DNA of 39,557 bases, taken from NCBI GenBank assembly GCA_043775255.1, contig JAYVST010000369.1, positions 1 to 39,557 on the forward strand, given 5' to 3'. A program made the translations under genes and the position numbers. Of this stretch, positions 3,541-35,713 are shown piece by piece (the first letter of the stretch is position 1; each line of letters begins with the position of its first letter). Below the pieces are notes generated by a model. That model did no database searches, had not been told where the DNA came from, and worked only from the letters and a program-made list of their open reading frames with translations. Source of the DNA: Burkholderiales bacterium. GTDB lineage: Bacteria > Pseudomonadota > Gammaproteobacteria > Burkholderiales > JAEUOS01.

Positions 3541-3543
3541 GCT

Positions 3544-4125: not shown

Positions 4126-5156
4126 TACAACCTCCAGCCTTGGGTTCCGGTCTTCGTGAAATGGCAATTGCTCACGCTGCCGTCGAATCGCTCGAGCGAG
4201 CGGATCACGTCCATGCGCCTGTCGGGCGGCACGAAGAACAACATGAAACCGCCGCCGCCGGCGCCCGAGATCTTGCCGGCCGACGCACCCGCGGCCAGCG
4301 CCTCTTCGAAAATGTGCTCGATATGCACGCTCGACACCGAAGACGATGTCGCTTTCTTGTTGGCCCATCCCTCCCGCATCGATTCGACGATGCCGCCGAA
4401 ATCACCTCTCAGAAGGCATTCCTTCATGCGCGCCGCTTCGCGCTTGAGCGCATGCATGGCCTCCACGGTCTTGCCGGCGCCGGACCGCACGTTGGCGCTC
4501 TGGTCGGCAATCACCTTCGCGGATTCGCGCGATACACCCGTGTAGAACAGGAGCAGCGAGGCTTCCAGTTCGCAGATGATCCAGTTCTTGATGCGCAATG
4601 AGTTGATCACTGCCTTCTCATCCGCGTAGAACTCCATGAAATTGAAGCCGCCAAATGTGGCCGCGTACTGGTCCTGCCGCCCGCCTTGCAGGCGGCAATC
4701 GACGCGCTCAACCTGGAATGCAAGGTTGGCAAGCGTGTAGTCGTCAAGCGGAAGATTGAGAAATTCCGCGAAGACGCGCAACATCACCACGGCAAGCGTG
4801 GACGAGGATCCCAGACCGGATCCGACGGGAGCGTCGCAAAAAGTGGAAAGTTCGACAGCCAGCGGCCGGCCGCCGTTGAATTCACGGACGATGCGGTTGT
4901 AAACGGCCTTATGCAGGTCAAGATTGCCATCCAGGGGATACTGCTCAGCCAGTGGCAATTCGACAGTCTGCTGTCTGTCGGTGGAAATGAAACGCAATAC
5001 CGGCGCATCGAGCGTCTTGATGACCGCATATGCGTAACGGTCGATGGTGGCGTTGAGCACGTACCCGCCGAAATGGTCGCAATACGGCGAAACGTCGGTA
5101 CCGCCGCCGGCCAGTCCCAACCGCAGCGGCGCCCGCGCCCTTACAATCATTGTCAT
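4125..5156 (-). CDS. hddA: GHMP-family kinase, probable D-glycero-alpha-D-manno-heptose 7-phosphate kinase
   Basis: 343 aa with GHMP motif II PVGSGLGSSSTLAVV and motif III SGAGGGGFMLF. It is the first gene of the gmhA/hddC/gmhB operon. Confidence 0.78.
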   Translation of the reverse strand: MTMIVRARAPLRLGLAGGGTDVSPYCDHFGGYVLNATIDRYAYAVIKTLDAPVLRFISTDRQQTVELPLAEQYPLDGNLDLHKAVYNRIVREFNGGRPLAVELSTFCDAPVGSGLGSSSTLAVVMLRVFAEFLNLPLDDYTLANLAFQVERVDCRLQGGRQDQYAATFGGFNFMEFYADEKAVINSLRIKNWIICELEASLLLFYTGVSRESAKVIADQSANVRSGAGKTVEAMHALKREAARMKECLLRGDFGGIVESMREGWANKKATSSSVSSVHIEHIFEEALAAGASAGKISGAGGGGFMLFFVPPDRRMDVIRSLERFDGSVSNCHFTKTGTQGWRL

Positions 5157-5285
5157 CTTTGCTGCTCCAAGCTAGCCGCGATCCACCCAGAACCCCATTA
5201 GAGTTTACCGCACCCGTATGCGCGGCATTTCACATTCTCGCCGGTAATCCGACCCATATTCCAATTCCACATTCACGGTAATCCG

Positions 5286-6425
5286 ATGCCTCCACGATCC
5301 GCGTTGCATGCCTGGCTAGGTAGACATTTCGAGCTGGCACAAGAGACCGCCGATCGCAATCTTCCGATGGAAGGCTTGCGTGGGATCGCTGTATTGCTGG
5401 TCTTTTTCGTCCACTATTCCACCGACATCCTGCCGTGGATCGGCAACGATGGCTTCACCAGCCGGCTCGCCACTGGCCTGTTCATAGTAGGAAATACCGG
5501 TGTCGATCTGTTCTTTGTCCTGAGTGGACATCTGATCTACGGCGCCCTCATATCGAAGAATCGCAGGTACCTGCAGTTCCTGGGCCGCCGCGTCGAGCGA
5601 ATCTATCCTGCCTTCCTGGCGGTCTTCGCGCTTTACTTCCTGACCAGCCTTTTCATGCCACAAGCCAGCAAGTTGCCGCAGGGGAACCTTGAATTGACGA
5701 GATACCTCGTGTCCAACATGTTGCTCCTGCCCGGCATGCTGCCGATTCAGCCACTGATCCAGGTGGCATGGTCATTGAGCTACGAATTCTTCTTCTATCT
5801 CGCCTGCCCCGTGCTGATCGCCATGCTGCGCCTGCGCATGCGCCGGTCGACGACCAGAATGGCTGCAATCGCCGCGATCAGCCTTTTGGGGTTCGGCTGG
5901 TCATTCGCGTTTGGCGCGTCGCACGTCCGGTTGGTCATGTTTGGTTCGGGCATGCTGCTGTACGAGATTTGCGCCGACCGCGACTTCAACGCGCCACGCG
6001 GCTACGGCATGCCGACACTCATGCTGGCTCTCGCCGGCTACTACCTGATGGTGATCAACAAGGCAGAGTCGGTAGCAGCGTTTGCCCTGCTGTTCGTCTG
6101 CTATTTCGCCGTTTGCCACGAGGCTTTCACACGCAACGGCCTGAGTGCAATGCTGCTGTCGGTGCGTCCATTGCGCTGGCTGGGCAACATGAGCTACTCG
6201 TTTTATCTCCTGCATGCGTTCATGATCCACGGGTTCTTCTTCGCATTCAGGCTCATCACTCCTGCGCGGGGTGATGCCGACCACCTCTACTACCTTCTGG
6301 CCGTGCCGGTCTTCCTGGTTTCGGTCGTCGGGTCCGCCTGTCTGTTCCTGCTCGTCGAACGCCCGTTCTCGTTGCAGAAAGCCGCCAAGCCGGGCGCTAC
6401 AGGCGCGTCGGGCTCCGCAGCCTAG
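5286..6425 (+). CDS. acyltransferase family 3 (OafA/WecH-like) integral membrane O-acyltransferase
   Basis: 379 aa that is hydrophobic throughout (about 10 TM segments). It has the N-terminal LEGLRGIAVLLVFFVHY signature of acyltransferase-3 proteins. It is transcribed divergently from the heptose operon. Confidence 0.82.
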   Translation: MPPRSALHAWLGRHFELAQETADRNLPMEGLRGIAVLLVFFVHYSTDILPWIGNDGFTSRLATGLFIVGNTGVDLFFVLSGHLIYGALISKNRRYLQFLGRRVERIYPAFLAVFALYFLTSLFMPQASKLPQGNLELTRYLVSNMLLLPGMLPIQPLIQVAWSLSYEFFFYLACPVLIAMLRLRMRRSTTRMAAIAAISLLGFGWSFAFGASHVRLVMFGSGMLLYEICADRDFNAPRGYGMPTLMLALAGYYLMVINKAESVAAFALLFVCYFAVCHEAFTRNGLSAMLLSVRPLRWLGNMSYSFYLLHAFMIHGFFFAFRLITPARGDADHLYYLLAVPVFLVSVVGSACLFLLVERPFSLQKAAKPGATGASGSAA

Positions 6426-6463
6426 TGCCAAACTTTACGACTGCATTTTTCCAAGGGACATGG

Positions 6464-7753
6464 TCAGTTGAAATCGACCATCGAACGGCGTCTGCGAGCC
6501 AACGTGACCACACCCCCCTGATGGATCAGTTCTGCGGGCGTATCACGCCCGAGAAACAACAACGGACTTGCCGTATAGCCGTAACTTCCGGAAGCCAGCA
6601 CGGCCAGCAGATCGCCATGCTGCGGTTCCGGAATCTCGACGTCAACACCAAGCAGGTCGGTCGGATTGCATGAGGGGCCGGCAATGCTGCACCTTATCCT
6701 GGCGGCGTTCGGTCGCGAAATATTGCGCAGCGCGAAATTCGATCTGAACGCGGCGCCGAACGTGCCCGCGGCCGTGAGATGATGATGCAGGCCGCCATCG
6801 GAAACGAAGAACGCCTTGCCGCGCGAGCGCTTGCTGCTGACCACCCGCGCGACATACACGCCCGCATCAGCCGTCAGGTAACGACCCAGTTCGAAAACCA
6901 TCTCGCGCGGCCCGCCAGGTGCGCTCACGAAGTCCTGGAACACGCGGCCAAGTTCCGCGGCCACAGGCGCCAGTTCGAGTTCACGCGCGTCCTCCGAATG
7001 CGCGACCCCGAATCCGCCACCGAGATTGACGACGCCGCAGTGAAACCCGCTGCTGCGCTCGATTTCGCCTGCAATGCGCAGGGTGTTCCGGACACCTTCG
7101 ATTACGCCGAATGGCTCGAAACACTGGCTGCCTGCATAGACGTGAATGCCGCGAAAGCGGAGTTGCCCGGTATGCCTCGCGACCACCTCGAGAGTTGCAC
7201 CGAGTTCCTCTTCGTCGATGCCGAATTGGACGGCCTTGCCGCCCATTTTCAGGCCGTAGGCGCGAATCTGCAGAACGGGATTGACGCGCAACAGGATATT
7301 CGCCTTCGTATCGGTGCGCCTTGCCATTTCGATGCATTCATCGAGTTCGCGTCGGGACTCGATGCTGATGCAGCCAACGCCCGCCCTGATCGCCGCAGCC
7401 AGCTCGGGCATGGTCTTTGCCGGACCGGCGAAGCTCAATTGCTCCCCGTCATAGCCGGCCAGCAGCGCCTGCTCGAGTTCGCCACCGGAAGAAATGTCCA
7501 GGCCATCGGCAGTGGCGCGAACGGCACGCAGAAGTGCCAGGTTCGGATTGGCCTTGACCGCGTAGTACACCTTGGCGAAGCCTGCAAACGCGTTGCGGAC
7601 CGCACCGATCTTCGCGTTGATCGCGTCCGCGTCGTACAAATAGAACGGGGTGCCATGTTCATTGGCCATCTTCTCCATCTGCTCGGCGGAAATGCCGCGC
7701 CATGCACCCGTCTTGTCGATATTCAAGAAATGCTCCTCGGCAACCTGCTGCAA
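6464..7753 (-). CDS. fold-III PLP-dependent decarboxylase (Orn/DAP/Arg decarboxylase family), exosortase-A-associated type
   Basis: 429 aa with TPFYLYD, the PLP-Lys motif YYAVKANPN, LGGGFGV, IAGPSCNPTDLL and SGSYGYTAS. The track start codon is TTG (7753). The next ATG would remove a conserved N-terminal strand, so the start stays uncertain. Confidence 0.82.
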   Translation of the reverse strand: MQQVAEEHFLNIDKTGAWRGISAEQMEKMANEHGTPFYLYDADAINAKIGAVRNAFAGFAKVYYAVKANPNLALLRAVRATADGLDISSGGELEQALLAGYDGEQLSFAGPAKTMPELAAAIRAGVGCISIESRRELDECIEMARRTDTKANILLRVNPVLQIRAYGLKMGGKAVQFGIDEEELGATLEVVARHTGQLRFRGIHVYAGSQCFEPFGVIEGVRNTLRIAGEIERSSGFHCGVVNLGGGFGVAHSEDARELELAPVAAELGRVFQDFVSAPGGPREMVFELGRYLTADAGVYVARVVSSKRSRGKAFFVSDGGLHHHLTAAGTFGAAFRSNFALRNISRPNAARIRCSIAGPSCNPTDLLGVDVEIPEPQHGDLLAVLASGSYGYTASPLLFLGRDTPAELIHQGGVVTLARRRRSMVDFN

Positions 7754-7774
7754 AGCTGCATCCGCGCTACCTCA

Positions 7775-9049
7775 TCAAATTGCATTCAAGTCGGCCCAGG
7801 TGATGCCGTCGACCCACAACTGATACTTTCGGTCGATCATGATGATCGGCTTTGCGCTTCCCTTGGCGGCGAACAGCCCGACAACTCCGTCGACCATCGT
7901 TTCGTCCAGCGTCTGCGCGGCCCCGCCGGTAAGGATGAACTGGGCGATCTTGCCGACATCCGCCGTCGGCAGTCCCGGGCCATCACCGCGCGAGAAGCGA
8001 TCCAGCGCGAGGAACAGGCAGGCGTACGAGAGAAACTGCGGGGACGGTTCGAATTCGCCCTCGCGCAACGATTGATAGGTCTGCTGGACGTCCCCGACCT
8101 GTACCACGCTCAGGAATTCGTACAACCTCGAATGCGTCCGGATTTGGAGCAATGCGCTCTCGCGGGACGCGACGATGCCCAGATCGGCGAATACATAGCG
8201 GGCGATGGATGACGTGGGCGACGGTTTGTGTTCGCTCTCGCCGCGGATGATCTCCACGGTGTAGTGCAGGTCGGTGGTTGCGCCTCCGATGTCGATCACG
8301 ACGCAGGCGCCGATGATCTTGATGGACGAGCGGTTGAATACCGCCCTTTGAAAGCCCCGATTGGCAATTTCCGGCGTCGGGCGAATGCCGCGCGACAGAT
8401 TGCCGCGCAATTCACTCACACCTTCCTTGTAGACGAGGTCGTCCAGATACGCACGCCGGATGGCTTCGAATACGGTCGGCAGGCGGCTGACAAGCGCGCC
8501 CGCAAGCGGATTGCCGATCACCGAGGCGCCGGGAAACAAGTCGACGAACATCGCAGCGAGGCTGGCATTGCCGGCATAGGCGAGTGCTCCAAAACGGTAA
8601 AGTCCGGGATCGAATTTCCTCAGACGCTCTTCCAGCGGGCCGGCATCGCCACAGTCGATTCCGCCGGCGACAATCAGGATGTCGACCTTGCTCTGGTCTC
8701 CGCCGGGCTCATCGAAATCACGCAGGTAAACCGGGTTGGCACCAGCCAGCAAGGCCTGGTTGCGGATGGCGGCGCCGCTGAAATGCTTGCTCAGACAGAC
8801 GATGCCGACGCGCAGCCCGCCGTTGGCCGAGGAGCATACGATGATGTTGTCGGAGTCGAGCGGGATCGCGAGGTCCGAGAGAATGGACTCGACCTGCGTG
8901 GCAATCCCGACCTTGAAGTCGCGCGCGAAAAAACTCTGCTCCATGAGCGAGTCATCCGCACCGACCTTGGCCACCTTGACGACGGTGGAACCGATGTCGA
9001 TGGCGACTCGGGCGGGATTGGTCGCGGCAACGGACATTGAATCTTCCAT
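7775..9049 (-). CDS. glmL: glutamate mutase accessory/reactivating protein (MutL/GlmL-like, ASKHA fold)
   Basis: 424 aa with AIDIGSTVVKV, CSSANGGLRV, ILIVAGGIDCGD and a second phosphate motif VVIDIGGATTDLH. It starts 7 nt after the glmE stop. Confidence 0.72.
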   Translation of the reverse strand: MEDSMSVAATNPARVAIDIGSTVVKVAKVGADDSLMEQSFFARDFKVGIATQVESILSDLAIPLDSDNIIVCSSANGGLRVGIVCLSKHFSGAAIRNQALLAGANPVYLRDFDEPGGDQSKVDILIVAGGIDCGDAGPLEERLRKFDPGLYRFGALAYAGNASLAAMFVDLFPGASVIGNPLAGALVSRLPTVFEAIRRAYLDDLVYKEGVSELRGNLSRGIRPTPEIANRGFQRAVFNRSSIKIIGACVVIDIGGATTDLHYTVEIIRGESEHKPSPTSSIARYVFADLGIVASRESALLQIRTHSRLYEFLSVVQVGDVQQTYQSLREGEFEPSPQFLSYACLFLALDRFSRGDGPGLPTADVGKIAQFILTGGAAQTLDETMVDGVVGLFAAKGSAKPIIMIDRKYQLWVDGITWADLNAI

Positions 9050-9056
9050 AATCGGT

Positions 9057-10463
9057 TCACATCATGATGTTTATGTCCGCAAGCAATTGCCGATAGGTCT
9101 TATCCGACGAACTGCCGCGTGCGGCAAGCAAGCCGCGCTCAGCGCGTGCGTCGTGGTCGGAAATCGGTACGTTGCCACGGTCGGCGATGCGGATCGACCC
9201 GTTCGCATCGCGCATGGAAATCAGCCGGTTGGCGTTTTCGGCATGGGGCGAGAACGGCACGTCGATGTGGCCAAGCTGGAAGGCGCGAAACACGCTTTCC
9301 CAGAACACGCTGCCGGGCATCGCGAAAATCGAATCGAGAATGCTGCGAACCTCCGACTCGATCAACACGGCCTCTGCCTCGATGAGGGGGGATGTAACCG
9401 GCTGGGCACTGCCGAAGATTCGCAGCAGATATCGGACGGTATCGACCGCCTCCGCATTGATCTCGGCGCGCGGCACGCCCAGCGCCTCGTCCACCGTCTT
9501 GACGACGATCTTGTCGGCGCCGATCAGGCTGGCCACGAGGCTGGCTCCGGATATGAGCGCGGCAGCCTTCTCCCGTTGTATCGGGAACTGCCCCATCCAC
9601 TGGTGGTAGACCAGATAGGTGCGAACATCGCCGAAGCCGAACTCGTGGAGGTAATGGTTGGTCAATTGCCGCAGGACCCTGGCCGTCGCGATATCCTGGA
9701 CCATCGAACCGGTTTGTCCGAAACTTACCGCGAATGACAGCACGCCCTGCTCGGCCGCCAGCAACGCCTCCACGATCTGAACCACGACGGCAATTGCAGG
9801 CGGAACCAGCGTGGCACTGAGCGGCCCGAAGCTTTCCCTGTGGATGGGGCGTTCCGGCGTCGAATTGAAGGCGCAGACGCGGTCGACGTATTGCCAGTAG
9901 AGCAGGCATCGATCAAGCGGAAAACCTTCCGAATACGGCAGGCAATAGCATATCCCGCCGCCTTCGATCTCGGCGATTCCGGATGCGAGTGCAACCTCTA
10001 CAAGAAGGCGCGCATCCGGCGTGCCGTGACGCAGGCTGATGGGCTTATCGATGCCTTCGAACAGCCCCCGGGTCAGGCGATAACCGTGACTTACCAGCGG
10101 ATAGCCGTTGAGATAGTTGCGCTCTTCGTCCTCGCTTCGGTGCAGGAGCTGGGTTGCGGTTTCGTACTGATTCTGGCGCGTGTAGCTGTCGATGGTGAGA
10201 GGAATGAAATCCGCACCTGCCTGGCTGAGTTGGCGCGTCAGCTGGAATTGCGACTCGTACCTGGGAAAGCCGCCACGCGGCTGAATGCAGGGTATCGCGC
10301 CGCGTTCGGCATACGCGACTCCCGGGAAGCGTCGCGGCGGCACCGCGGCGAGAAACGCGCGGACTTCGTCGGGCTCGATGCCCTGCGCGAGCGGATGCGA
10401 TGTTACCTGGGCGCGATAACGCTCGATATCCTGAAGTCGGGAACTAGCTGACGGGCGGGCCAT
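9057..10463 (-). CDS. glmE: methylaspartate (glutamate) mutase E/epsilon catalytic subunit
   Basis: 468 aa that is colinear by eye with Clostridium GlmE/MutE. Shared motifs are QPRGGF, ADFIPLTIDSYTRQNQY, LRHGTPDARLL, EIEGGGICYCLPY, FGPLSATLVPP, EALLAAEQGV, YHQWMGQFP and KIVVKTVDEALGVP. The ATG overlaps the glmS stop by 20 nt. Confidence 0.85.
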   Translation of the reverse strand: MARPSASSRLQDIERYRAQVTSHPLAQGIEPDEVRAFLAAVPPRRFPGVAYAERGAIPCIQPRGGFPRYESQFQLTRQLSQAGADFIPLTIDSYTRQNQYETATQLLHRSEDEERNYLNGYPLVSHGYRLTRGLFEGIDKPISLRHGTPDARLLVEVALASGIAEIEGGGICYCLPYSEGFPLDRCLLYWQYVDRVCAFNSTPERPIHRESFGPLSATLVPPAIAVVVQIVEALLAAEQGVLSFAVSFGQTGSMVQDIATARVLRQLTNHYLHEFGFGDVRTYLVYHQWMGQFPIQREKAAALISGASLVASLIGADKIVVKTVDEALGVPRAEINAEAVDTVRYLLRIFGSAQPVTSPLIEAEAVLIESEVRSILDSIFAMPGSVFWESVFRAFQLGHIDVPFSPHAENANRLISMRDANGSIRIADRGNVPISDHDARAERGLLAARGSSSDKTYRQLLADINIMM

Positions 10464-10878
10464 TCTTCAAATCCTTCAAAAGGTCATTGATCGCGATGCT
10501 TATATCGGGCTGCTGGTGATACACGCGGTCAAAGCCGTATTGCTTGAACAACCGCACCACCTCCGCCTGCGGGCGGTCTCCGACCACGATGTTTCCACCT
10601 ACGTAAAGAAGCGCTTCTCCCAGACCGATGGCGTTGAAACGGCTGCGAAAATCCGAACACCAATACTCACCCTCGCCGTTGAGCGATGAAACAAACACCG
10701 CGTGCGCATTGACTTCGAGCGCGGCCTGGCAGAAATGCTCCGGACGGTTGCGCGTGCGCAAATTGAAAACCTGGAACCCTGATTCCTCCAGCGCCAGCTG
10801 CATGATGCGATTGCCCACGACGTGGATATCGTCACCAATCACGCCGATCACGACACGTGCGAGTATTTCCGCAGGCAT
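10444..10878 (-). CDS. glmS: methylaspartate (glutamate) mutase S/sigma subunit, B12-binding domain
   Basis: 144 aa from the internal ATG (aa 80 of the 223-aa track ORF, 8 nt after the ligase stop). It carries the base-off/His-on motif GDDIHVVGN (DxHxxG), plus VFVSSL, LLYVGGNIVVG and GFDRVY. These are near-colinear with Clostridium GlmS/MutS. Confidence 0.85.
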   Translation of the reverse strand: MPAEILARVVIGVIGDDIHVVGNRIMQLALEESGFQVFNLRTRNRPEHFCQAALEVNAHAVFVSSLNGEGEYWCSDFRSRFNAIGLGEALLYVGGNIVVGDRPQAEVVRLFKQYGFDRVYHQQPDISIAINDLLKDLKNGPPVS

Positions 10879-10886
10879 GGGTGCGC

Positions 10887-12473
10887 TCAGGAAGGCTTGA
10901 CGGCGCGGCTGCCGGTTTCGGGATCGATCCCCAGCTTCTCGAACGAAGCCTGCTTGATCGATTTTCGATCGAGCTTGCCGGCATTGCCGGTTATCGGAAA
11001 GGCATCGAAATGGATGAAATACACCGGCACCATGTGACCGGGAAGGTTGCCCTTCAGGAATTGCTTGAGAGCATGTTCGGGGACGGGCTGGCCGTTCTCG
11101 GTGGTGTATGCGCAACCGATATCCTCGCCAACCTCGATATTCTGCACCGCGAATGCGACCGCCTCGCGGACGTCCGGATGGCGTATGACTTCGGTCTCCA
11201 CCTCCGTCGGGCTGACGCGAAAGCCCTTGGTCTTGATCATTTCGTCGCCGCGAGCGACGAAATAAAGGTAGCCTTCGTCATCGCGATAGACCTTGTCGCC
11301 GCTGAAGACAAGTGTCTCGCCCGGAAACCTCGGGTGGGTCCTGAAAACCTTGGCCGTGTTTTCCGGGTCGCGCCAGTATCCCTTTGAAACGGTGGCGCCG
11401 CGATGAACCAGTTCGCCGACCTCGTTGGGCGCGCATTCGTCACCCTTTTCGTCGAGCACCATGACCTGACAACCGGGGATCGACTTGCCGACGGACGTGG
11501 GATGGCTATCGAGTTTGTCCGGGTCGAGATACGTAGAACGGAACGCTTCAGTGAGACCGAACATCGAGAAGATACGGGCCTTCGGAAATGCCGTCTTGAG
11601 GTCCTTGAGCATCGTATCGGACAGGCGCCCGCCGGTCGAGCACACATACCTGAGGGCGGAAAAGTCGTGTGCCGCCGTCGCTATCTTCAGGCGCCGGTCG
11701 AACATCTTGGTGATGATGACCGGCATCACCGGCAAGGCGGTGATCTTTTCCTTGGCAAGGAACACAAACATGTCGTTCGGCAACGCAAGTTCGTGCAGGT
11801 ACAGCGTCGCCCCGTTGCGGATGGTCTGCCAAATCTGGTTCAGTCCGTAGTCGAAGTTGAACGACAGAACACAACCGATGCGATCGCTTTCGCTTGTGCC
11901 CAGATACTCGGACACAATGTCCGCGCCGTCGGCAAGATTGCGATGCGCAATCAGGATGCCCTTCGGGCGGCCAGTGGAGCCCGATGAATAGATGATTGCC
12001 GCATTGTCCGCGCCGATCCGGTCGAAATGGCGATTCGGCTGCATGTAACGCCGCATGTAGGCGATATTCGGCCAGTCCGCCACTACCTCCCCGCGCCCCA
12101 CGACGAGCTTGACGATGCCGGAAAATCCCGAAACCTCCTTGAGACGATCGGAATCGGTCACCATCGCCACCATCCCGGAGTTGTCGATGATGTGCCGGAT
12201 GTTGGGTTCCTTCAAACGCGGCAGTATCGGCACGACCACCCCGTTGGCAAACAGGATGCCCAGGATCACCAACACCTGATCGACCGATTTCTCCATGCAC
12301 ACGCCCACCCGGTCGCCGGTGCGGATACCCAGTTCGCGGAAGCATTCCGCCGTTGCCAAGGCGTCGTTGTACAACTCGGAAAACGTGATCGAGCGGTTGC
12401 TCGACACGATTGCTGCCTTGGTTGGCAGACGCTCGGCGGTTTCGGCGAGAAACCGGGGAATCGATCTAGGCAT
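10887..12473 (-). CDS. ANL-superfamily adenylate-forming ligase (acyl/aminoacyl-ACP or -CoA ligase), exosortase-A-associated type
   Basis: 528 aa with AAIIYSSGSTGRPKGI, GELVHRGATVSKGYW, FSGDKVYRDDEGYLYFVARGDEMIKTKGFRVSPTEVE and GKLDRKSI (A10 Lys). AGGAG lies about 11 nt upstream of ATG 12473. Confidence 0.9.
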   Translation of the reverse strand: MPRSIPRFLAETAERLPTKAAIVSSNRSITFSELYNDALATAECFRELGIRTGDRVGVCMEKSVDQVLVILGILFANGVVVPILPRLKEPNIRHIIDNSGMVAMVTDSDRLKEVSGFSGIVKLVVGRGEVVADWPNIAYMRRYMQPNRHFDRIGADNAAIIYSSGSTGRPKGILIAHRNLADGADIVSEYLGTSESDRIGCVLSFNFDYGLNQIWQTIRNGATLYLHELALPNDMFVFLAKEKITALPVMPVIITKMFDRRLKIATAAHDFSALRYVCSTGGRLSDTMLKDLKTAFPKARIFSMFGLTEAFRSTYLDPDKLDSHPTSVGKSIPGCQVMVLDEKGDECAPNEVGELVHRGATVSKGYWRDPENTAKVFRTHPRFPGETLVFSGDKVYRDDEGYLYFVARGDEMIKTKGFRVSPTEVETEVIRHPDVREAVAFAVQNIEVGEDIGCAYTTENGQPVPEHALKQFLKGNLPGHMVPVYFIHFDAFPITGNAGKLDRKSIKQASFEKLGIDPETGSRAVKPS

Positions 12474-12602
12474 TTGGTGCTGCTCCTACAGGTCAAATGG
12501 AGGCGGTTGCCCCGCGGCACGACAAACCGACGGGGACAGTTCGTTCCCGATTCGGCTCAAGCCCTCATACAACTATCTCGTACGGCTGGTCAGACTGCCG
12601 CG

Positions 12603-12860
12603 CTATACCTGCCCGGCGGAATTCTTTCTCTCGATCAGCGCAGCGATGCTCGACAGTCGCGACAGGTTGTCGCGCACCAGATCGTCGGCCTCGAGTTCGA
12701 CTCCGAATTTCTCCTGGACAAAAACGGCCAGCTGCACGATGCTGAAGGAATCGATCACCTGGGCTTCCAGCAGATCCAGTTGGGGATCAAGCGGCCCTTC
12801 GTAACCGAATTCCTGCCTGATGTAGTCCCCGAGAATCCCGATCACGTCTTCCATTTTCAT
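12603..12860 (-). CDS. acyl/peptidyl carrier protein
   Basis: About 85 aa and acidic, with the phosphopantetheine Ser context LEAQVIDSFSIVQLAVF. There are in-frame ATGs at 12872, 12860 and 12854, so the start is uncertain by a few codons. Confidence 0.78.
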   Translation of the reverse strand: MKMEDVIGILGDYIRQEFGYEGPLDPQLDLLEAQVIDSFSIVQLAVFVQEKFGVELEADDLVRDNLSRLSSIAALIERKNSAGQV

Positions 12861-12986
12861 TTTCCCCGCCATTGCGCGCAATGACGCGATTCTACAATTA
12901 ACGAATCTTCACACAGCGCCCTGAATTGACGCGGAATTCCCGCGCACCGTTTCATTTCGCCCCAATCCGTTGCCACATCCTGCTTG

Positions 12987-13709
12987 TCACGGTTGGCGCA
13001 GCGCATCGGCATTCAGACGCAGTTCGACTCGCCGGCCGGCGCCAGCGGTTATGCTGACGTACGGCAGCACGCTCGAGAACATCAGTTCGAACCGCCCGGC
13101 CTGGAAGAACAGCGCACGCCCCGCGAGCTTCCAGCCAAGATGTTGATGGGCGCGGCGTGATGTGAGGTTGAATCGAGTCAGCCTGCTGAACGTGAAATCG
13201 ATGCCTTGACTGCGCAAATAGGCATTGGCTCCATTCCACAGGCCGACAAAACCGAGGCCCATGCGATGCTCGGGAAAAAGATAGAAGTCGAAATCAAATA
13301 CCGCCCGATTTTCGGGTGACAGGACGTACGTGCAGCGGACTTCGTCCTCGTCGTAGCGGTCATGACAAAACCACATGAAACCGATCAGCCGTCCCTTCTG
13401 GTAGGCCCCCAGGCATATGGCGCCTTGGGAGAAACGCGACTCTTTGATGTCGGGGCGCGCCGGCATGCGCTCGACTTCCGGGTCGCCGCGCCGGATTTCG
13501 CGAATCTCGACGCTGCTCGCCAGGCGTCCGGGAACCAGAGGCTTGTCGGTAATCGGCTGCACCATCAGTTCGTATACGTACAACTTGAGGTGCGGGGAAA
13601 CGCGTCCAAGGATCCGGTCGATCACGTAGAGCGACCCCGCGCCCGGCCCGAATTCCCTGAATGGCCCCGTAATGCGCTTGAGAATGGAATTCTCCGAAGT
13701 GGTGGGCAT
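12987..13709 (-). CDS. GNAT-fold acyltransferase
   Basis: 240 aa from the internal ATG (aa 83 of the 322-aa track ORF). The longer form overlaps the upstream gene and is Pro/Arg-rich. A motif-A-like PEHRMGLGFVGLW (RxxGxG) is followed by SRRAHQHLGW. Confidence 0.6.
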   Translation of the reverse strand: MPTTSENSILKRITGPFREFGPGAGSLYVIDRILGRVSPHLKLYVYELMVQPITDKPLVPGRLASSVEIREIRRGDPEVERMPARPDIKESRFSQGAICLGAYQKGRLIGFMWFCHDRYDEDEVRCTYVLSPENRAVFDFDFYLFPEHRMGLGFVGLWNGANAYLRSQGIDFTFSRLTRFNLTSRRAHQHLGWKLAGRALFFQAGRFELMFSSVLPYVSITAGAGRRVELRLNADALRQP

Positions 13710-13842
13710 GGCTATGAATGTCCAGAATCGGTCCGCGCACGGCGCCGCCGTCGCAATGGCTGGATCGGGATCGGGCTGTGGCGACAGCCTTCTTGCAGGC
13801 GACCACGCCAGAGGCTGATGCAATGATCGACTAGCACGGCAG

Positions 13843-14805
13843 TTAACAAGCCGCCGCGGGGGCGCCCAGATTCGCATTGCGCAACATGCGCAACGCGAAT
13901 CTGGCTGTTGGACGCCCCCAGGGAATGAAGCGGGGAATCTGGTACGGATCGTCATTCACGCATGCGACCCCGGGAGCCGTCGTCACGGCACACTTGAATC
14001 CGAGGTCGCGTACCAGGGCCACATGTTCGGCGCCGAAATCCCGTCCTGGCCAGCCATTCGGATACGCGAAGCTTGTGACAGGCTTGCCGGTTACGCGCTC
14101 CAGTGTTTGCTTGCCAAGCCTGATCTCGCGCAAGGCACCTTCATTGTCAAGGGTGGTCAGTATTGCGTGCGCGTCGGTGTGCCCGCCAATCTCCACGCCG
14201 CGTCGCGAGAGTTCCCGCAGTTGCTCCGTGGACAACATCAGGTCGTTCGGCAACGGGCCGCAATCTGCAAGTGCCACGGCACGCTTGACGTTTTGCTCAC
14301 GCTCGGCAGGATTCAGGTATTTCAAACGCATCTGCAGCGCCCGCACCGCCAACTTGCGCGCTTCCGGCGTGCCAAGCGACATGCGTTCGAGTCCAATCGA
14401 AGTCAGATCAATTTCGCCCGCGCGGCAACGCGCGATTATCTCGATCGAAGTGTCGTTGAACATGCGGCCACCGTCCAAATAGGCGGTGGCGACGAACACC
14501 GTCGCAGGCAGTCCATGGCGCTCGAGGATGGGAAGCGCAAGCGTAAGATTGTCGGCATAGCCGTCATCGAAGGTGATGCAGCAGGCACGCTTGGCCAATT
14601 GGCCCGCCTTGAGACTGCCGATGGCCTCCGTCAGTGACAACACGCTGAAATTCCGCGCCAGAAAGGCCATTTGCATCTCGAACAGCCGTGCATCGACCTC
14701 TCCCTCGCGCAACTCTTCGGGCTCGGCCAGCACCCTGTGATAGATGAGTACCGTCAACAGCGGGGTCTTGCGGGGCCAAGCCAGCAGGGGAAGCGACTCG
14801 ATCAT
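13843..14805 (-). CDS. polysaccharide deacetylase (NodB homology domain)
   Basis: It has ITFDDGYADNLTLALPILERHGLPATVFV, EIGGHTDAH and FAYPNG. I start it at ATG 14805, 4 nt after the upstream stop; the track start is an upstream TTG that overlaps that gene. Confidence 0.8.
   Translation of the reverse strand: MIESLPLLAWPRKTPLLTVLIYHRVLAEPEELREGEVDARLFEMQMAFLARNFSVLSLTEAIGSLKAGQLAKRACCITFDDGYADNLTLALPILERHGLPATVFVATAYLDGGRMFNDTSIEIIARCRAGEIDLTSIGLERMSLGTPEARKLAVRALQMRLKYLNPAEREQNVKRAVALADCGPLPNDLMLSTEQLRELSRRGVEIGGHTDAHAILTTLDNEGALREIRLGKQTLERVTGKPVTSFAYPNGWPGRDFGAEHVALVRDLGFKCAVTTAPGVACVNDDPYQIPRFIPWGRPTARFALRMLRNANLGAPAAAC
13858..13919. repeat. 62-nt imperfect palindrome (7+10+7 bp stems) inside the 3-prime end of the deacetylase CDS
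   Basis: The left arm is gggggcg-c-ccagattcgc-a-ttgcgca, the loop is aca, and the right arm is tgcgcaa-c-gcgaatctgg-ctgttgga-cgccccc. I checked pairing base by base. It encodes the last ~20 aa (GRPTARFALRMLRNANLGAP) and ends 4 codons before the stop. Confidence 0.7.
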
Positions 14806-14809
14806 CGTT

Positions 14810-16144
14810 TCACGACTTGACTGGTCGAGCTGGGTCTGGCGGAGGTCCGCCCTGCGGCGGATCCGCAACGCGCATCACGTACGGAGATATCGTGCGCGCG
14901 GGTGGCGCCAACTGCTTTTTCACAATGCGGTCGAGGATGACCAATATGACCACAACGTAGTAAGGCAGATCGAAATAACTGAGACTGAGAAACGTCCCGC
15001 CCACCGCGTAGCCGATCAGCGATACCTGCGACATCGCGGCCAGGTCCCGCGCCCATTCAAGGCCTTGCTTGCCGCTTGTCCTGCGCACGATCGCCTCCCC
15101 CTGAAACCACGCCAGCACGAAGATCGACAGGAACAGGAACAACCCGACGAAACCGTGCTCACCCAGAACCTGGAAGTAGATGCTGTGCGCGGCGTGGATG
15201 TCGTCCGGAACGGGGGCGTACTTCGCAAAAACGTCCGGTTCGTAGATGGCGAAGCCACCGCCGAGCGGAAATCGGTCGACAGCGAGATTGAAGGCCATCC
15301 ACCAGGCGTTGATGCGCCCCATGGCGGATGCATCCTGGTCGTAGGTCGTGATGGTACGCATACGTTCGGTCCAGTTTTCCGGCATGGCCGCAAAAATCAG
15401 CGGCACAGCCGCCACCACCAGCACGCCAATCACGGCTTTCTTGGAGCTCTTCAGCCAGAGAAAAAAGCCCATCGCCAGCAAGGCCAGCAGGGCACCGCGC
15501 GAGTGTGACCCTAGCGCAGACACGATGCTCAGCAGGACCGCTCCGGCACAGGCCCGTTTCAGCCATAGCCGGTCGGCATACATCTGCAGATAGCGAAACA
15601 GCGGCACGCTTATGATGGTCGCCAAGGCCAGGTGATTGTTGTCCTCGATGAACGTGGCGCTCGGTCCCCACACCCGGTAGCTGCCGCCCGAGGCGAGCGT
15701 GAACAGGCCCCCCTTGACTCCAAAGAATCCGATCGATAGGGTCAGCACCCACACCAGCTTGACGAGGTCTTCGCGGTTACCGACGATCAGAAGCGTGATC
15801 AGCACCATGAGCTGGATCTTGATCGTCCGCAACCAAAAATCGAATTCGTAGTCGGGATGGAAGGAAAACACCGGCGAGACTCCGATCCAGAACATGAAAC
15901 AGATCATCGCGAGCGTAATTCCGTTGAGCGGGAATCTCTCAAGCCGGTTGAAATTGACCAGCACGCTTCCGAGCGTTGCGATGGCGATCGCCTGTGCGAA
16001 CGGCATTGAATAGGCGAAGCCCCAGGTCAGCCGGTGCGGATTCATGATGCTAAGCCAAATCCACATCATCAGTCCAAAATGCGGGCGCTTGAATATGTAG
16101 GGAATCGACCCGAACACGAAAAGCGTCAGGATCAGGTCACGCAT
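14810..16144 (-). CDS. Wzy/O-antigen-ligase-like polytopic membrane protein (exosortase-A-associated O-glycosylation-ligase type)
   Basis: 444 aa with at least 10 hydrophobic segments. It has a Wzy_C-like segment SALGSHSRGALLALLAMGFF and a large loop containing MGRINAWWMAFNL. Confidence 0.78.
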   Translation of the reverse strand: MRDLILTLFVFGSIPYIFKRPHFGLMMWIWLSIMNPHRLTWGFAYSMPFAQAIAIATLGSVLVNFNRLERFPLNGITLAMICFMFWIGVSPVFSFHPDYEFDFWLRTIKIQLMVLITLLIVGNREDLVKLVWVLTLSIGFFGVKGGLFTLASGGSYRVWGPSATFIEDNNHLALATIISVPLFRYLQMYADRLWLKRACAGAVLLSIVSALGSHSRGALLALLAMGFFLWLKSSKKAVIGVLVVAAVPLIFAAMPENWTERMRTITTYDQDASAMGRINAWWMAFNLAVDRFPLGGGFAIYEPDVFAKYAPVPDDIHAAHSIYFQVLGEHGFVGLFLFLSIFVLAWFQGEAIVRRTSGKQGLEWARDLAAMSQVSLIGYAVGGTFLSLSYFDLPYYVVVILVILDRIVKKQLAPPARTISPYVMRVADPPQGGPPPDPARPVKS

Positions 16145-16159
16145 GATCGCCCCGCTGTC

Positions 16160-17341: not shown

Positions 17342-17356
17342 GGGTTTTCCGCCGGC

Positions 17357-19479: not shown

Positions 19480-19502
19480 TTCCGGCTCCCGCGTCCAATA
19501 GC

Positions 19503-21446: not shown

Positions 21447-22625
21447 TTATCGCGCTGCACCGGCGGCGCGGACCGATTGCCCGTGTCCACCCAGCAAACG
21501 GTCGTACAAGCTTCGATAGGCACATGTCATTGATTCGAGGCTGAACCGGCGCTCGACCAGGGCCCGGCCCGCCCGTCCGGCGGCAGCGGCAGCTGAAGGA
21601 TTGGCGACATATGCGCGTATGGCTTGCGCCAACCTAACCGGGTCCGCAGCCGGCACCAACTCGCCGGTCGTACCGGAATCCAGCAGCTCCTTGTTGCCGC
21701 CGACATCGGTGGCCACCACAGGAAGCCCACAAGCCATGGCTTCGAGAATCGTATTCGATATGCCTTCCGCCAGAGAGGGGAGAACAAAACAGTCCAGCCC
21801 GCGCAAAACGTCCGGAATGTCGCTTCGCTCGCCTGTCAACCAAGCCAGATCCGCCATGCCCGCCTGGCGCAGGATGGTCGACGCCGCGACGCGCAAGGGC
21901 CCGTCGCCGACCATGACAAGGCGCAAGCGCCCGCGCAGTTCGGGGGCGCGACGCACGGCCTCGATAAACGCCGCGGCAAGGTTGGTCTGATCCTTGACCG
22001 GTTCCATGCGACCCACCGTTCCTACAAGAAAGAGCGCCTCACCAGTAAACGGGCAGCCGGAAATCGGTACGCGTGCACCGTTTGCCGGATGAAAAAGCGC
22101 AATGTCCACTCCGTTGTAGAGTTGGGTCACACGAGTCTTCGCTATGCCGACTTTTCCGACGAGGTACCCTTCTAGATCGCGAGACAGCGCCACATAGTGC
22201 GTCACAAAAGGGCTGTAGAGCCGCCGCACCCATCGGTATTTCCGGTTGGATCCGTCAAGATCTCCCACATCACGGCCATGTTCGCCATGGATGCGCACCG
22301 GAACACCGGCCGCCCATGCAGGTGCGGATACCTCCAACGCGGCGAGGTTGCGGCTGTGAACGATTGCGGGTCGCATCGATCGGAAAAGTGAATGAAGCCG
22401 CGGGTATATTCGCAGTGCATGACCCGCAGGCTTGTTCAATGCGACGAATTCGACGTTCTTGCGCCGGATGCGATTGCGAAAGTCCGTGATGTCGGTGAGC
22501 GATATCACAGCATGCCGATAACATTCTTCCGGCATGTTGTTGATCAAATTGACGACCCCGTTTTCCAGTCCGCCGACGTTGAATCGGTATACCACGTGGG
22601 CAATCAGCGGGCGATGATCAATCAC
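21447..22625 (-). CDS. glycosyltransferase family 4, PEP-CTERM/EpsH1-locus type
   Basis: 392 aa with IAHVVYRFNVGGLENGVVNLIN and FVLPSLAEGISNTILEAMACGLPVVATDVGGN. The GTG start overlaps the exosortase stop (GTGA). Confidence 0.85.
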   Translation of the reverse strand: MIDHRPLIAHVVYRFNVGGLENGVVNLINNMPEECYRHAVISLTDITDFRNRIRRKNVEFVALNKPAGHALRIYPRLHSLFRSMRPAIVHSRNLAALEVSAPAWAAGVPVRIHGEHGRDVGDLDGSNRKYRWVRRLYSPFVTHYVALSRDLEGYLVGKVGIAKTRVTQLYNGVDIALFHPANGARVPISGCPFTGEALFLVGTVGRMEPVKDQTNLAAAFIEAVRRAPELRGRLRLVMVGDGPLRVAASTILRQAGMADLAWLTGERSDIPDVLRGLDCFVLPSLAEGISNTILEAMACGLPVVATDVGGNKELLDSGTTGELVPAADPVRLAQAIRAYVANPSAAAAAGRAGRALVERRFSLESMTCAYRSLYDRLLGGHGQSVRAAGAAR

Positions 22626-24199
22626 TTGATTTCCCGGCGCGATGTCATCGCTTGCAGGGCGCCAACGACGCCTGGCGCCGACGCCTCCATCAGCGCCGCG
22701 AGCGCCACGTCAGCCCCGGCATTCTGCGCCGCCGGCGCGAAGAAGATGACAACCGCGCTGCCGTCGCCGCGCCCACGCAAGCGGGACCAGGTCGTCAGCG
22801 CCTTCGCGAGATACGGATTGGCCGTGAGACGACCATCGATCCAGTAGAACCACTGCACCTGCCAGCGGGTATCGGTCGCGCCTGCTGCGATTCGATTCAG
22901 GCGCAATTCGGCGGTGCCCAGCCGCACCCGCATTGCCGCGAACTCGGCGTCCCGCGTACCTGCCTTGACCTGTGACCAGTCGTTGTCATTGGTCTTGACC
23001 AGCACGTTTTCGGAACTCACCAACTTCCGCTCAAACGACTGGTTACGGTAGTACGCCACGTATAGTCCGGCGGAAAGGCCGTTCTTGCGGAAATACGCGA
23101 TTTCCGATACAGACATCCCTGTGAAAGCAGGCCGCCAATCGAGCGGCACATCGACTGACTTGAGCCAACCTTCAGCTTCGAGGGGAATCGCAACGGCCAC
23201 GCGCTTATCCAATTCATCGTGCGAGATCGAAGCGTTCAACATGGCGGGAACCAGCGCCACGAAGGCCATGGCCGACCCTGCCAGCCACAACGGCCAGCCA
23301 CTCTTGGTCAAGCCAATCGAAGGTTGCGACATGATTTCATGCGGCACCGGCGGCTCGCTCCAGCGCGCTCCAATCATGAACATGATGACGATGACCAAGC
23401 CGAAAAACACCCAGCCGTAAAGGATGTGGTCGACACCAACGGCGATGCGGTTGTCGGAGAGGTGACCAAGCATCACAATCATGTAGGCGCGCAGCCAGTT
23501 GGCCACGATCGGCAACAAGATCGCGAATCCGACGAACAGCCAGCGCCGCGACATGGAACGATAGTTCAGATAGGCAAACAGCGTGCCTACGGTAGTGGAG
23601 GCGATCAGATAGCGCACGCCGCTGCATGCTTCGACTACCGACCAACTGCCTGAAGGGATGACGAAGTTCTGGCCTTCGCGAAACACCGGAACACCCGAAA
23701 GGCCGACGGCGAGAACGGTGAAGTCAGCAGTCCATTCCATCATCTTCGGCATCACGAATTCACCAATTGGAAGGGCGAAGTACATGAACCCGAGCGGAAA
23801 GGCAATCGCACGCGCAACACGTGTGCCGAGAACGGCCGGTACCGCCAGCAACATCAGGGTCAGCATGGCCAGTTGTGTCACGGAGTTGGCCGCCGCCAGT
23901 TCGCCTGCGAGCCAGGCTAATCCGGCAAGCGCTGTGAGCGCGAGTATCCAAGGGCTTGGTTCGGGTTCGATCTGCGCCAATTGAACGCGTTTGCCCCAAA
24001 TCAGCCAGAGGGAGATCGGAGGTATCAGGAAACAATGATTGAAAGTCTCGGACCGCCACCAGATTTCCACCATCGACAGCGCGGTCTGGCGGTAGACAAC
24101 GGCGATGCCGGCAACCACAGCGAGCAGCATCGGCAGCGCGGTACGCCATGCCATCGACCACTCGACGGCCGCTTGTGCGGGGGCCTCGCGAACCATCAC
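22622..24199 (-). CDS. xrtA: exosortase A (EpsH) fused to a C-terminal EpsI-family domain
   Basis: 525 aa. The N-terminal ~285 aa is polytopic, with WWRSETFNHCFLIPPISLWLIW and the exosortase catalytic signatures VVEACSGVRYL (Cys192), ANWLR (Arg237) and DHILYGWVFF (His258). One further TM segment follows. Next is an EpsI-like periplasmic domain (GLYVAYYRNQSFERKLVSSENVLV ... WQVQWFYWIDGRLTANPYLAK). Confidence 0.9.
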   Translation of the reverse strand: MMVREAPAQAAVEWSMAWRTALPMLLAVVAGIAVVYRQTALSMVEIWWRSETFNHCFLIPPISLWLIWGKRVQLAQIEPEPSPWILALTALAGLAWLAGELAAANSVTQLAMLTLMLLAVPAVLGTRVARAIAFPLGFMYFALPIGEFVMPKMMEWTADFTVLAVGLSGVPVFREGQNFVIPSGSWSVVEACSGVRYLIASTTVGTLFAYLNYRSMSRRWLFVGFAILLPIVANWLRAYMIVMLGHLSDNRIAVGVDHILYGWVFFGLVIVIMFMIGARWSEPPVPHEIMSQPSIGLTKSGWPLWLAGSAMAFVALVPAMLNASISHDELDKRVAVAIPLEAEGWLKSVDVPLDWRPAFTGMSVSEIAYFRKNGLSAGLYVAYYRNQSFERKLVSSENVLVKTNDNDWSQVKAGTRDAEFAAMRVRLGTAELRLNRIAAGATDTRWQVQWFYWIDGRLTANPYLAKALTTWSRLRGRGDGSAVVIFFAPAAQNAGADVALAALMEASAPGVVGALQAMTSRREIK

Positions 24200-33702: not shown

Positions 33703-33859
33703 GTATCTGAAAAAGGCAATCTGCTGGTTGTTTTCGCTCAGAAAACACATTATTTCACACCAGTCCGATGGTTCCCCGGCGCAGCAAGCCTTTAAAATCC
33801 TTTCTGTTTCGACAATCGACGCCATCGCGATACTAGACAGCTGGCGTCAGGGTCTGCCA

Positions 33860-35548: not shown

Positions 35549-35713
35549 CAGCCTGTCGGACTTGGGGCGTCGAACGCGAAAATCGGCCCCAGCGAGGACA
35601 GTTTTTGCCGCCTTCTTGCCCCATAGCCCGGCTATGGGGCAAGAAGGCGGTGAAAAATGGACCGCTGCGGCCGATTTGCAGCAGACGCTCCCCAAGTCCG
35701 ACTGGCTGCTAGC
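35544..35713. mobile_element. ~170-bp palindromic MITE/REP-like element, copy 1
   Basis: It has 24-bp terminal inverted repeats, gctagcagcctgtcggacttgggg and ccccaagtccgactggctgctagc, matching at 23 of 24 positions. The arms are imperfectly complementary. The central stem is 21 bp, ccgccttcttgccccatagcc/ggctatggggcaagaaggcgg (35608..35650). A second copy sits at the window end. Confidence 0.65.

Follow-up and report, generated by a model that had tools for sequence, protein, structure and literature searches.

The vicenistatin and butirosin pathways both decarboxylate an amino dicarboxylate while it is held on a carrier protein. In vicenistatin biosynthesis in Streptomyces halstedii, a vitamin B12-dependent mutase (VinH/VinI) works with an adenylating enzyme (VinN), a stand-alone acyl carrier protein (ACP; VinL), and a fold-III decarboxylase (VinO). 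VinN accepts 3-methylaspartate for loading but not 3-aminoisobutyrate, and VinO acts once the substrate is attached to the carrier (PMC11284099). In butirosin biosynthesis in Niallia (Bacillus) circulans, BtrI, BtrJ, and BtrK convert glutamate to γ-aminobutyryl-ACP by the same on-carrier logic, and a sugar-derived acceptor receives the product. Glutamate mutase is also encoded in the catabolic glm operons of Clostridia and Negativicutes (glmS/mutS-glmL/mutL-glmE/mutE-mal). Finally, a ligase (TIGR03098), a decarboxylase (TIGR03099), and an ACP belong to an accessory set linked to exosortase A (XrtA), which we call the canonical set. We analyzed contig JAYVST010000369.1 of a Burkholderiales bacterium (assembly GCA_043775255.1), a stretch of 39,557 nucleotides (nt) that we refer to as the window. 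It carries seven genes in which a glutamate mutase is combined with a ligase, an ACP, and a decarboxylase. The original prediction, made from the sequence of the window, was that the mutase is wedged into the canonical set and that the seven genes build a β-amino acid on the ACP.

We found that the seven genes encode, in order, a protein of the Gcn5-related N-acetyltransferase (GNAT) fold, an ACP, a ligase, GlmS, GlmE, a GlmL-like protein, and a decarboxylase. Open reading frame (ORF) listing and profile searches placed them as predicted, co-directional on the minus strand from 13709 to 6464, and a separate gene call on an identical metagenomic contig agreed with this gene set. The predicted spacing of 0 to 130 nt was essentially right: the gaps are 132, 129, 8, −20 (an overlap), 7, and 21 nt. 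The 20-nt overlap of glmS and glmE was seen again in other loci. The same order of all seven genes was found in all 40 species-level genomes with sufficient contig. The seven genes are a self-contained, portable cassette with a fixed order. We propose, at about even confidence, that they act as one cassette that would convert glutamate to a carrier-bound β-amino acid, with the GNAT-fold protein passing the group to an acceptor, here most likely a polysaccharide.

The mutase gives this proposal its starting point. GlmE passes its equivalog model (TIGR01503, 401.5 bits; cut-off, 390.1) and PF06368 (431 bits; cut-off, 26.6), and it aligns over its full length to the Clostridium cochlearium structure (6h9e/1cb7, 338 bits). 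The motifs that had been recognized in GlmE are present: QPRGG, SYTRQN, RHGTPD, and EGGGICYCLPY supply R66, R100, R149/H150, and E171/Y177/Y181 (C. cochlearium numbering). Each of these residues (R66, R100, R149, H150, E171, Y177, and Y181) is kept in 38 of 38 cassette loci, so that the substrate “arginine claw” (R66, R100, and R149) is invariant in the cassette clade. GlmS (NF002612, 154.6 bits; cut-off, 110) likewise has the predicted DxHxxG motif, the base-off/His-on B12 motif, as GDDIHVVGN, and GDDIH[VITM]VGN is found in GlmS of 38 of 38 cassette loci. The GlmL-like protein matches PF13941 (96.8 bits) and reaches only 84.8 bits against the GlmL equivalog, which has a cut-off of 475; its gene always follows glmE in the cassette. 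In the first step of the proposed pathway, GlmS and GlmE with adenosylcobalamin, kept active by the GlmL-like protein, would convert L-glutamate to (2S,3S)-3-methylaspartate. Strong homology and conserved active-site residues make this predicted step well supported, and the mutase looks like a genuine, non-catabolic glutamate mutase.

An alternative is that glmS-glmE-glmL is a catabolic insertion of the mesaconate pathway or that glutamate is not the substrate of the mutase. We scanned for GlmE with one genome per species and recovered forty loci with 61 to 80% identity and forty with 36 to 41% identity. Identity was thus sharply bimodal, and the 36 to 41% group consisted of Clostridia and Negativicutes. 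The S, E, and L proteins of the catabolic operons are homologous to those of the cassette, with cofactor and substrate residues conserved. In contrast, the gene order in the cassette is S-E-L, whereas catabolic operons have S-L-E followed by methylaspartate ammonia-lyase (methylaspartase). We searched for this lyase by tblastn with a Sporomusa methylaspartase verified by Pfam. As predicted, there was none in the window. It had been considered that the glmS-glmE-glmL block might travel with methylaspartase elsewhere. We found the reverse: methylaspartase was absent from all 42 cassette loci and present, adjacent to the mutase genes, in 38 of 40 catabolic loci. Within the cassette clade, glmS-glmE-glmL was never seen apart from the ligase and decarboxylase genes. 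We rejected the catabolic insertion because methylaspartase was found in 0 of 42 cassette loci, the gene order differs, and GlmE identity is bimodal; comparative genomics has already largely refuted it.

Cassette-clade GlmE differs from catabolic GlmE beside active-site residues, at A67G, S176C, N178C, and often Q101H. As motifs, QPRAG becomes QPRGG, TRQN becomes TRHN in most, and ISYN becomes [IL]CY[CST] (positions 64, 98, 172, and 174 of the window protein). These substitutions, and a GlmE score just over the equivalog cut-off (401.5 versus 390.1 bits), would fit a substrate other than glutamate. The three claw arginines and E171 are invariant, however, and we regard a catabolic role or a non-glutamate substrate as extremely improbable.

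We next consider the ligase, an enzyme of the acyl-coenzyme A (CoA) synthetase/nonribosomal peptide synthetase (NRPS) adenylation domain/luciferase (ANL) superfamily. Among solved structures, its best relatives were NRPS adenylation (A) domains (LgrA, 325 bits), and VinN scored 168 bits. Motif alignment gave the pocket residues D235, Y236, N239, A278, C299, T301, M322, R330, S331, and K517 (GrsA numbering). Of 32 cassette loci from several phyla, 31 carry the resulting code, DYNACTMR[S/G/A]K, and the remaining one has G at position 278. Relative to LgrA A domains, a gap of 1 to 2 residues lies directly after GLTEA in the β13-β14 loop (HMMER). VinN reads 3-methylaspartate as a β-amino acid by means of D230, a bulky F231, S299, and a loop that is one residue shorter and carries K330/R331 (review PMC11253843). 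At the level of motifs, and through the features reported there, the cassette ligase shows the VinN-type characters: Asp235, an aromatic residue at 236, Thr301, and a short loop bearing Arg. The proposed comparison of the ligase pocket with VinN, carried out by reported motifs, thus returned all four kinds of feature. The carrier protein has weak matches to stand-alone ACPs, including DltC, AmcB, and the OlsHI ACP. It is kept at the same position in related loci and was also 83 amino acids (aa) long in the separate gene call. In the second step, the ligase would bind 3-methylaspartate as a β-amino acid, activate its C4 carboxyl, and thioesterify it to the holo carrier protein.

The pocket argues for an amino dicarboxylate held in the β or ω mode, not specifically a methylated one. 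It is the mutase, not the pocket, that names 3-methylaspartate as the substrate. Tyr236, with Ala in acidobacterial canonical ligases, had been a candidate marker for cassette ligases, one that would distinguish 3-methylaspartate from a longer substrate, and was dropped; proteobacterial canonical ligases carry Tyr236 too.

Among solved structures, the decarboxylase is closest to BtrK, which acts on L-glutamyl-[BtrI ACP] (265.7 bits); its scores against diaminopimelate decarboxylases are 167 bits or lower. The protein has the BtrK segment DGG[LM]HHH...F where the diaminopimelate decarboxylase 2p3e reads MNDLIRP. The lysine for pyridoxal phosphate (PLP) and the motifs AVKAN, HxYxGSQ, GGGFG, ELGR, and CNPTD are intact. 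The BtrK-type motif is common to cassette and canonical exosortase-A decarboxylases. These comparisons support a BtrK-like enzyme, that is, one resembling an enzyme for carrier-tethered substrates and not a diaminopimelate decarboxylase. Its gene starts at TTG (429 aa) or possibly at an ATG at 7678 (404 aa), and it is present in every cassette locus whose contig reaches that far. In the third step, this BtrK/VinO-type decarboxylase would strip the free α-carboxyl on the carrier to give 3-amino-2-methylpropanoyl (3-aminoisobutyryl)-S-ACP, and the decarboxylation would pull the unfavorable mutase equilibrium forward. The second and third steps are predicted from likeness to VinN and BtrK in motifs and from gene linkage.

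The order of loading and decarboxylation could be different. In one version, 3-methylaspartate itself would be delivered; in another, free 3-methylaspartate would be decarboxylated first, as CrpG does in function, and 3-aminoisobutyrate would be loaded. The decarboxylase is BtrK-like, has the BtrK motif, and is present in every cassette locus that extends far enough, which speaks against both versions. They are further opposed by the Arg in the β13-β14 loop of the ligase, the place where VinN binds the free carboxylate of its substrate, and by the rejection of 3-aminoisobutyrate by VinN (PMC11284099). We consider these versions very unlikely.

The cassette therein resembles the vicenistatin pathway, with which it shares four parts: a B12 mutase, an adenylating enzyme, a stand-alone ACP, and a fold-III decarboxylase. 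Unlike that pathway, it has no counterparts of the polyketide synthase (PKS), VinM, the VinK acyltransferase, or the VinJ aminopeptidase. It has a GNAT-fold protein instead, and a GlmL-like gene is present. Profile searches of the window found no second ANL enzyme, trans-acyltransferase, VinJ-type peptidase, or PKS. The hosts also differ: the cassette is carried by Gram-negative environmental bacteria and lies in a polysaccharide locus rather than a macrolactam cluster. The butirosin system shares the BtrK motif and differs in that BtrJ is an ATP-grasp enzyme and not an ANL enzyme, no mutase takes part, and off-loading is by BtrH and not by a GNAT.

The GNAT-fold protein is the candidate for the last step. 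It had no Pfam or NCBIfam family match at normal thresholds; the best was Acetyltransf_1 (PF00583) at 15.9 bits (E value, 0.016). Its AlphaFold model (mean predicted local-distance confidence, pLDDT, 86.9; predicted template modeling score, pTM, 0.82) was compared with solved structures by Foldseek. The top 50 PDB matches listed were, as far as they are described, all GNAT folds (best E value, 7e-8; template modeling [TM] scores, 0.40 to 0.48). They include sugar N-acetyltransferases, MshD, tandem GNATs, and the aminoacyl-transferring domains of MprF, aminoacyl-phosphatidylglycerol synthase (A-PGS), and Sba18. A conserved motif, HRMGLGF, is RxxGxG-like and resembles a CoA/pantetheine pyrophosphate-binding motif. 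The family comprises 772 homologue clusters. Thus, the original prediction of a GNAT acyltransferase held at the level of the modeled fold, and its suggested specific likeness to acyl-homoserine lactone (AHL) or N-acyl-amino-acid synthases did not. These synthases, including the PEP-CTERM-associated TIGR03694, gave no NCBIfam match at an E value of 0.01 and were not among the top 50 Foldseek matches. We rejected this kinship for lack of a profile or structural match. A relationship between the 240-aa GNAT of the window and the 339- to 348-aa GNAT of acidobacterial canonical sets was also rejected (hhalign probability, 0.5%). In the fourth step, the GNAT-fold protein would move the β-aminoacyl group to an acceptor, which in this locus may be the XrtA-type exopolysaccharide or its lipid-linked precursor, at an amine or hydroxyl group. 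We infer this step and its acceptor from the modeled fold and the gene neighborhood, and a polysaccharide seems the likeliest acceptor here.

To place the acceptor, the distribution of the cassette is informative. The 40 carrier species come from at least four phyla and include Beta-, Gamma-, and Alphaproteobacteria, Acidobacteriota, and Planctomycetota, with 61 to 80% GlmE identity. They include Burkholderiales, Rubrivivax, Rhodoferax, Nitrosospira, Candidatus Accumulibacter, Competibacteraceae, Methylococcaceae, Chromatiales, Woeseiaceae, Steroidobacteraceae, Rhodovibrionaceae, many Acidobacteriaceae and Korobacteraceae, and one Bythopirellula metagenome-assembled genome (MAG). There is a cultured carrier, Aquincola tertiaricarbonis MIMtkpLc11, in which the cassette occupies about 254.9 to 261.8 kb of NZ_JZUE01000004.1. 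More than 120 clusters of GlmE have an identity of 71% or higher. One 8.6-kb contig with the full cassette (L023, JAOZLT010000056.1) is assigned to a “Candidatus Gracilibacteria” MAG, probably through a binning error. Most cassette loci with long flanks lie within polysaccharide clusters that contain genes for glycosyltransferases, deacetylases, a flippase, Bac_transf, or Wzy_C. A tblastn search found polysaccharide markers or a canonical set no farther than 10 kb away in about 26 of 40 cassette loci. Stand-alone cassettes occur in A. tertiaricarbonis (L032), next to genes for a dCache-HAMP-GGDEF cyclase and HipA, and in a Competibacteraceae MAG (L003), next to genes for a CHASE2 cyclase and a GAF-HD protein. 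Nucleotide second-messenger genes precede these stand-alone cassettes (5097-6809 in L032; 2725-6484 in L003).

These data bear on a second reading of the last step, in which the same β-aminoacyl-ACP is made, the GNAT acceptor is a lipid, a small amine or amino acid, or a protein, and proximity to XrtA reflects co-regulation in biofilms or flocs. The stand-alone cassettes of L032 and L003 favor it, as does the finding that polysaccharide markers or a canonical set lie within 10 kb in only the 26 or so of 40 loci. The Foldseek matches to the aminoacyl-phosphatidylglycerol synthase domains of MprF and A-PGS also point this way, yet their scores were no better than those of sugar N-acetyltransferases. 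In addition, most long-flank loci are in polysaccharide clusters, and a tie to XrtA loci is part of how the paralogous canonical set is defined. We regard a non-polysaccharide acceptor as possible but unlikely.

A different role for the GNAT-fold protein would be that of an acetyl-CoA-dependent N-acetyltransferase that caps the free β-amino group, with off-loading by an enzyme from outside the cassette. All structural neighbors of the protein depend on acyl-CoA or aminoacyl-tRNA, and the motif HRMGLGF is conserved. Protection of the amino group recurs in the Vin and Btr pathways, by VinM alanylation and BtrJ glutamylation (PMC11284099), and the two α/β hydrolases of canonical sets could off-load the product. 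However, the cassette is kept as a portable unit, even where it stands alone, and none of its genes is for a hydrolase, an acyltransferase, or a thioesterase. Without the GNAT as the transferase, the pathway has no exit. We hold capping to be distinctly unlikely.

Several observations weigh against the proposed pathway and its polysaccharide acceptor. VinN is only a distant relative of the ligase (168 bits, versus 325 for LgrA), and the likeness between them is at the level of motifs, from alignment and not from structure. Proteobacterial canonical ligases share Tyr236, Ser/Thr301, and the Arg loop; because they share these features, the pocket alone fails to specify 3-methylaspartate over aspartate or glutamate. 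The ranking of decarboxylase relatives covers solved structures. The GNAT resembles known GNATs at TM scores of 0.40 to 0.48 only, with no hint of a donor or an acceptor. About one-fifth of the long-flank loci lie outside any recognizable polysaccharide cluster, and because some cassettes sit away from polysaccharide genes, the acceptor need not be a polysaccharide. Finally, we found no 3-aminoisobutyrate-bearing polysaccharide in the literature in a search that was broad and poorly targeted.

The cassette is not the canonical set with a mutase wedged into it, as the original prediction had it. TIGR03098 and TIGR03099 are still the best family matches of the cassette ligase and decarboxylase, and both proteins fall below the curated cut-offs (502.6 versus 592.35 bits and 409.1 versus 478.45 bits). 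The assignment of the two to the exosortase-A families therefore did not hold; together with the ACP and the GNAT, they form a diverged paralogous clade, 33 to 41% identical to true members. About 18 of the 40 cassette loci hold a second ligase/decarboxylase pair, only 35 to 41% identical to the cassette pair. The second pair of a Korobacteraceae MAG has a ligase that belongs to TIGR03098 proper (651 bits) and a decarboxylase that, at 443 bits, is below the TIGR03099 cut-off. Because both coexist in about 18 of 40 loci, the cassette and the canonical set are paralogues and not alleles of one system. In L024, L026, L030, and L040 (Rubrivivax/Burkholderiales; about 5100-17600), the cassette is nested between a canonical-type ligase gene and a canonical-type decarboxylase gene.

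The original prediction also called for a survey of XrtA loci for glmS-glmE-glmL between the ligase and decarboxylase genes. A metagenome scan anchored on the canonical ligase gave 80 loci, about 27 of them longer than 15 kb, and none of the 80 had glmS, glmE, or glmL, between those two genes or elsewhere in the locus. Wherever the contig extends, the canonical decarboxylase gene directly follows the ligase gene, while glmS-glmE-glmL intervene in the cassette. We rejected a plain insertion of glmS-glmE-glmL into the canonical set because each of the four shared components scores below its cut-off or is only 33 to 41% identical to canonical proteins, and because canonical sets coexist with the cassette. 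A textbook canonical set (L151, 2625-8761) has the ligase (815 bits), the decarboxylase (636 bits), the hydrolases TIGR03100 and TIGR03101, an ACP, and a 244-aa GNAT paralogous to that of the cassette (33% identity; E value, 2e-42). The ligase, decarboxylase, ACP, and GNAT of the canonical set are homologous to those of the cassette, at 33 to 41% identity, and both sets occur in XrtA polysaccharide contexts. Both types of ligase have D235, S/T301, the Arg loop, and K517. The canonical set has the hydrolases TIGR03100 and TIGR03101, which the cassette does not. On these comparisons, the cassette is a paralogue of the GNAT/ACP/ligase/decarboxylase set in which glmS-glmE-glmL lie between the ligase and decarboxylase genes and the two hydrolases are absent.

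Two further features of the canonical set emerged. The 244-aa GNAT paralogue, also found in L127, L138, and L157, is covered by neither an NCBIfam nor a Pfam model and seems to be a core member of the exosortase-A accessory set that has gone unrecognized. Canonical ligases in loci L088 to L167 have two pocket types: DANGTTMRSK, mostly acidobacterial and with the 339- to 348-aa GNAT, and DY[S/N]GTSMRSK, proteobacterial and with the two hydrolases. The split hints that the “canonical” family may have two substrates or two modes of binding.

Profile searches show the remainder of the contig to be a complete XrtA/PEP-CTERM polysaccharide locus, whose members score above curated cut-offs (Table 1). 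It contains stp1 and stp2 glycosyltransferases, FemAB, the XrtA deacetylase, an ATPase, an outer-membrane protein, a tyrosine kinase, a chain-length determinant, an exporter, an AsnB-like amidotransferase, and the TIGR03097 protein. The predicted XrtA-EpsI fusion marks the locus as the XrtA/PEP-CTERM type. The deacetylase encoded directly upstream of the cassette could expose a sugar amine, and a deacetylase gene is also near the cassette in several other loci.

Table 1. Coordinates of the cassette genes and of selected XrtA-locus genes in the window
Feature	Position	Strand	Length	Profile match and remarks
GNAT-fold protein, putative β-aminoacyl transferase (first cassette gene)	12987..13709	minus	240 aa	
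Stand-alone acyl/aminoacyl carrier protein	12603..12854	minus	83 aa	DSF serine motif; PF00550, 23.3 bits
NRPS-type adenylating (ANL) ligase	10887..12473	minus	528 aa	TIGR03098, 502.6 bits (below cut-off, 592.35)
GlmS, B12-binding sigma subunit of glutamate mutase	10444..10878	minus	144 aa	NF002612, 154.6 bits
GlmE, catalytic epsilon subunit of glutamate mutase	9057..10463	minus	468 aa	TIGR01503, 401.5 bits; PF06368, 431 bits
GlmL/MutL-like accessory protein, putative mutase chaperone or reactivase	7775..9049	minus	424 aa	PF13941, 96.8 bits
Fold-III PLP decarboxylase (predicted)	6464..7753	minus	429 aa	Length from TTG; TIGR03099, 409.1 bits (below cut-off, 478.45)
Polysaccharide deacetylase, directly upstream of cassette	13843..14868	minus		PF01522, 75.2 bits
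XrtA-associated O-antigen-ligase-like membrane protein	14810..16144	minus		TIGR03097, 521.7 bits (cut-off, 188.1)
Exosortase A fused to EpsI domain	22622..24199	minus		TIGR03109, 351.9 bits (cut-off, 208); TIGR02914, 89.5 bits

Other genes of the window were also assigned. Downstream of the cassette, on the minus strand at 2320-5156, genes for a HAD-family phosphatase (GmhB-like), hddC, gmhA, and hddA make up a complete GDP-D-glycero-α-D-manno-heptose set, which suggests a heptose-containing polymer. A plus-strand gene at 5286-6425, convergent with the decarboxylase gene, encodes an Acyl_transf_3 membrane O-acyltransferase (96 bits); Acyl_transf_3 and SGNH/SASA genes border the cassette in L001 and L086 too. 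Between a glycosyltransferase gene and the amidotransferase gene lies a gene for a Methyltransf_23 domain protein (18526-19500, minus strand). Past the export gene, 33728-36905 encodes a lytic transglycosylase, a trypsin-like peptidase, and an NTP_transf_5 protein, and the ORFs at 36812-38765 have no family match.

We also looked for regulatory elements. No Rfam family, including the cobalamin riboswitch, was found in the window, and a scan of the cassette for sigma-70 promoters and terminators returned nothing beyond shuffled expectation. No sigma-54 box was found upstream of the GNAT gene of the window. Good sigma-54 −24/−12 boxes do occur in Acidobacteriaceae loci, and such boxes lie 45 to 70 nt upstream of the GNAT gene in L012, L019, L020, L037, and L044, with TGGCACGACATTTGCA of L020 as one instance. 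A gene for a sigma-54 response regulator directly precedes the cassette in Korobacteraceae and related loci (L002 and L085).

As the original prediction had supposed, we found no prior description of this combination: no paper in the literature searched linked exosortase/PEP-CTERM loci with glutamate mutase or treated TIGR03098 and TIGR03099. Searches of the literature for PEP-CTERM with the ACP, decarboxylase, or ligase, and for methylaspartate mutase with exopolysaccharide, likewise returned nothing relevant. Vicenistatin and butirosin biosynthesis already provide the enzymology. The apparent novelty lies in the fixed seven-gene architecture with a GNAT exit, its wide spread among environmental Gram-negative bacteria, and its tie to XrtA polysaccharide loci. 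The exosortase-A-linked ligase, ACP, and decarboxylase had no function that we could find in the literature, and the mutase in the paralogous copy offers the first concrete substrate hypothesis for them. Under this hypothesis, the exosortase-A accessory set would load an amino dicarboxylate through the distal carboxyl and decarboxylate it while it is carrier-bound.

Another role for the cassette, which might extend to the canonical set, could be to install a short ω- or β-aminoacyl arm with a free primary amine on the exopolysaccharide, as the long-sought nucleophile for transpeptidation of PEP-CTERM proteins by exosortase A. There are parallels in sortase, which uses the pentaglycine built by FemABX, and in rhombosortase, which uses an ethanolamine-type amine. 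We offer this as a speculation that is improbable as it stands. If it is true, vitamin B12 would be needed, in part, for assembly of the floc and granule matrix in bacteria such as Accumulibacter, Competibacteraceae, Nitrosospira, and Aquincola.

More broadly, chemistry of the actinomycete macrolactam and butirosin type would occur, packaged in a cassette that is conserved and portable, in bacteria that form flocs and granules in wastewater, in nitrifiers, and in Acidobacteriota of soil. A. tertiaricarbonis is a cultured carrier, and floc genetics is established in another strain, RN12, which makes the idea testable; the cassette genes go unmentioned in the Aquincola floc-genetics paper. If the proposed pathway is true, these bacteria would place a new β-amino-acid decoration on their surface polymers, and that decoration would carry a requirement for vitamin B12.

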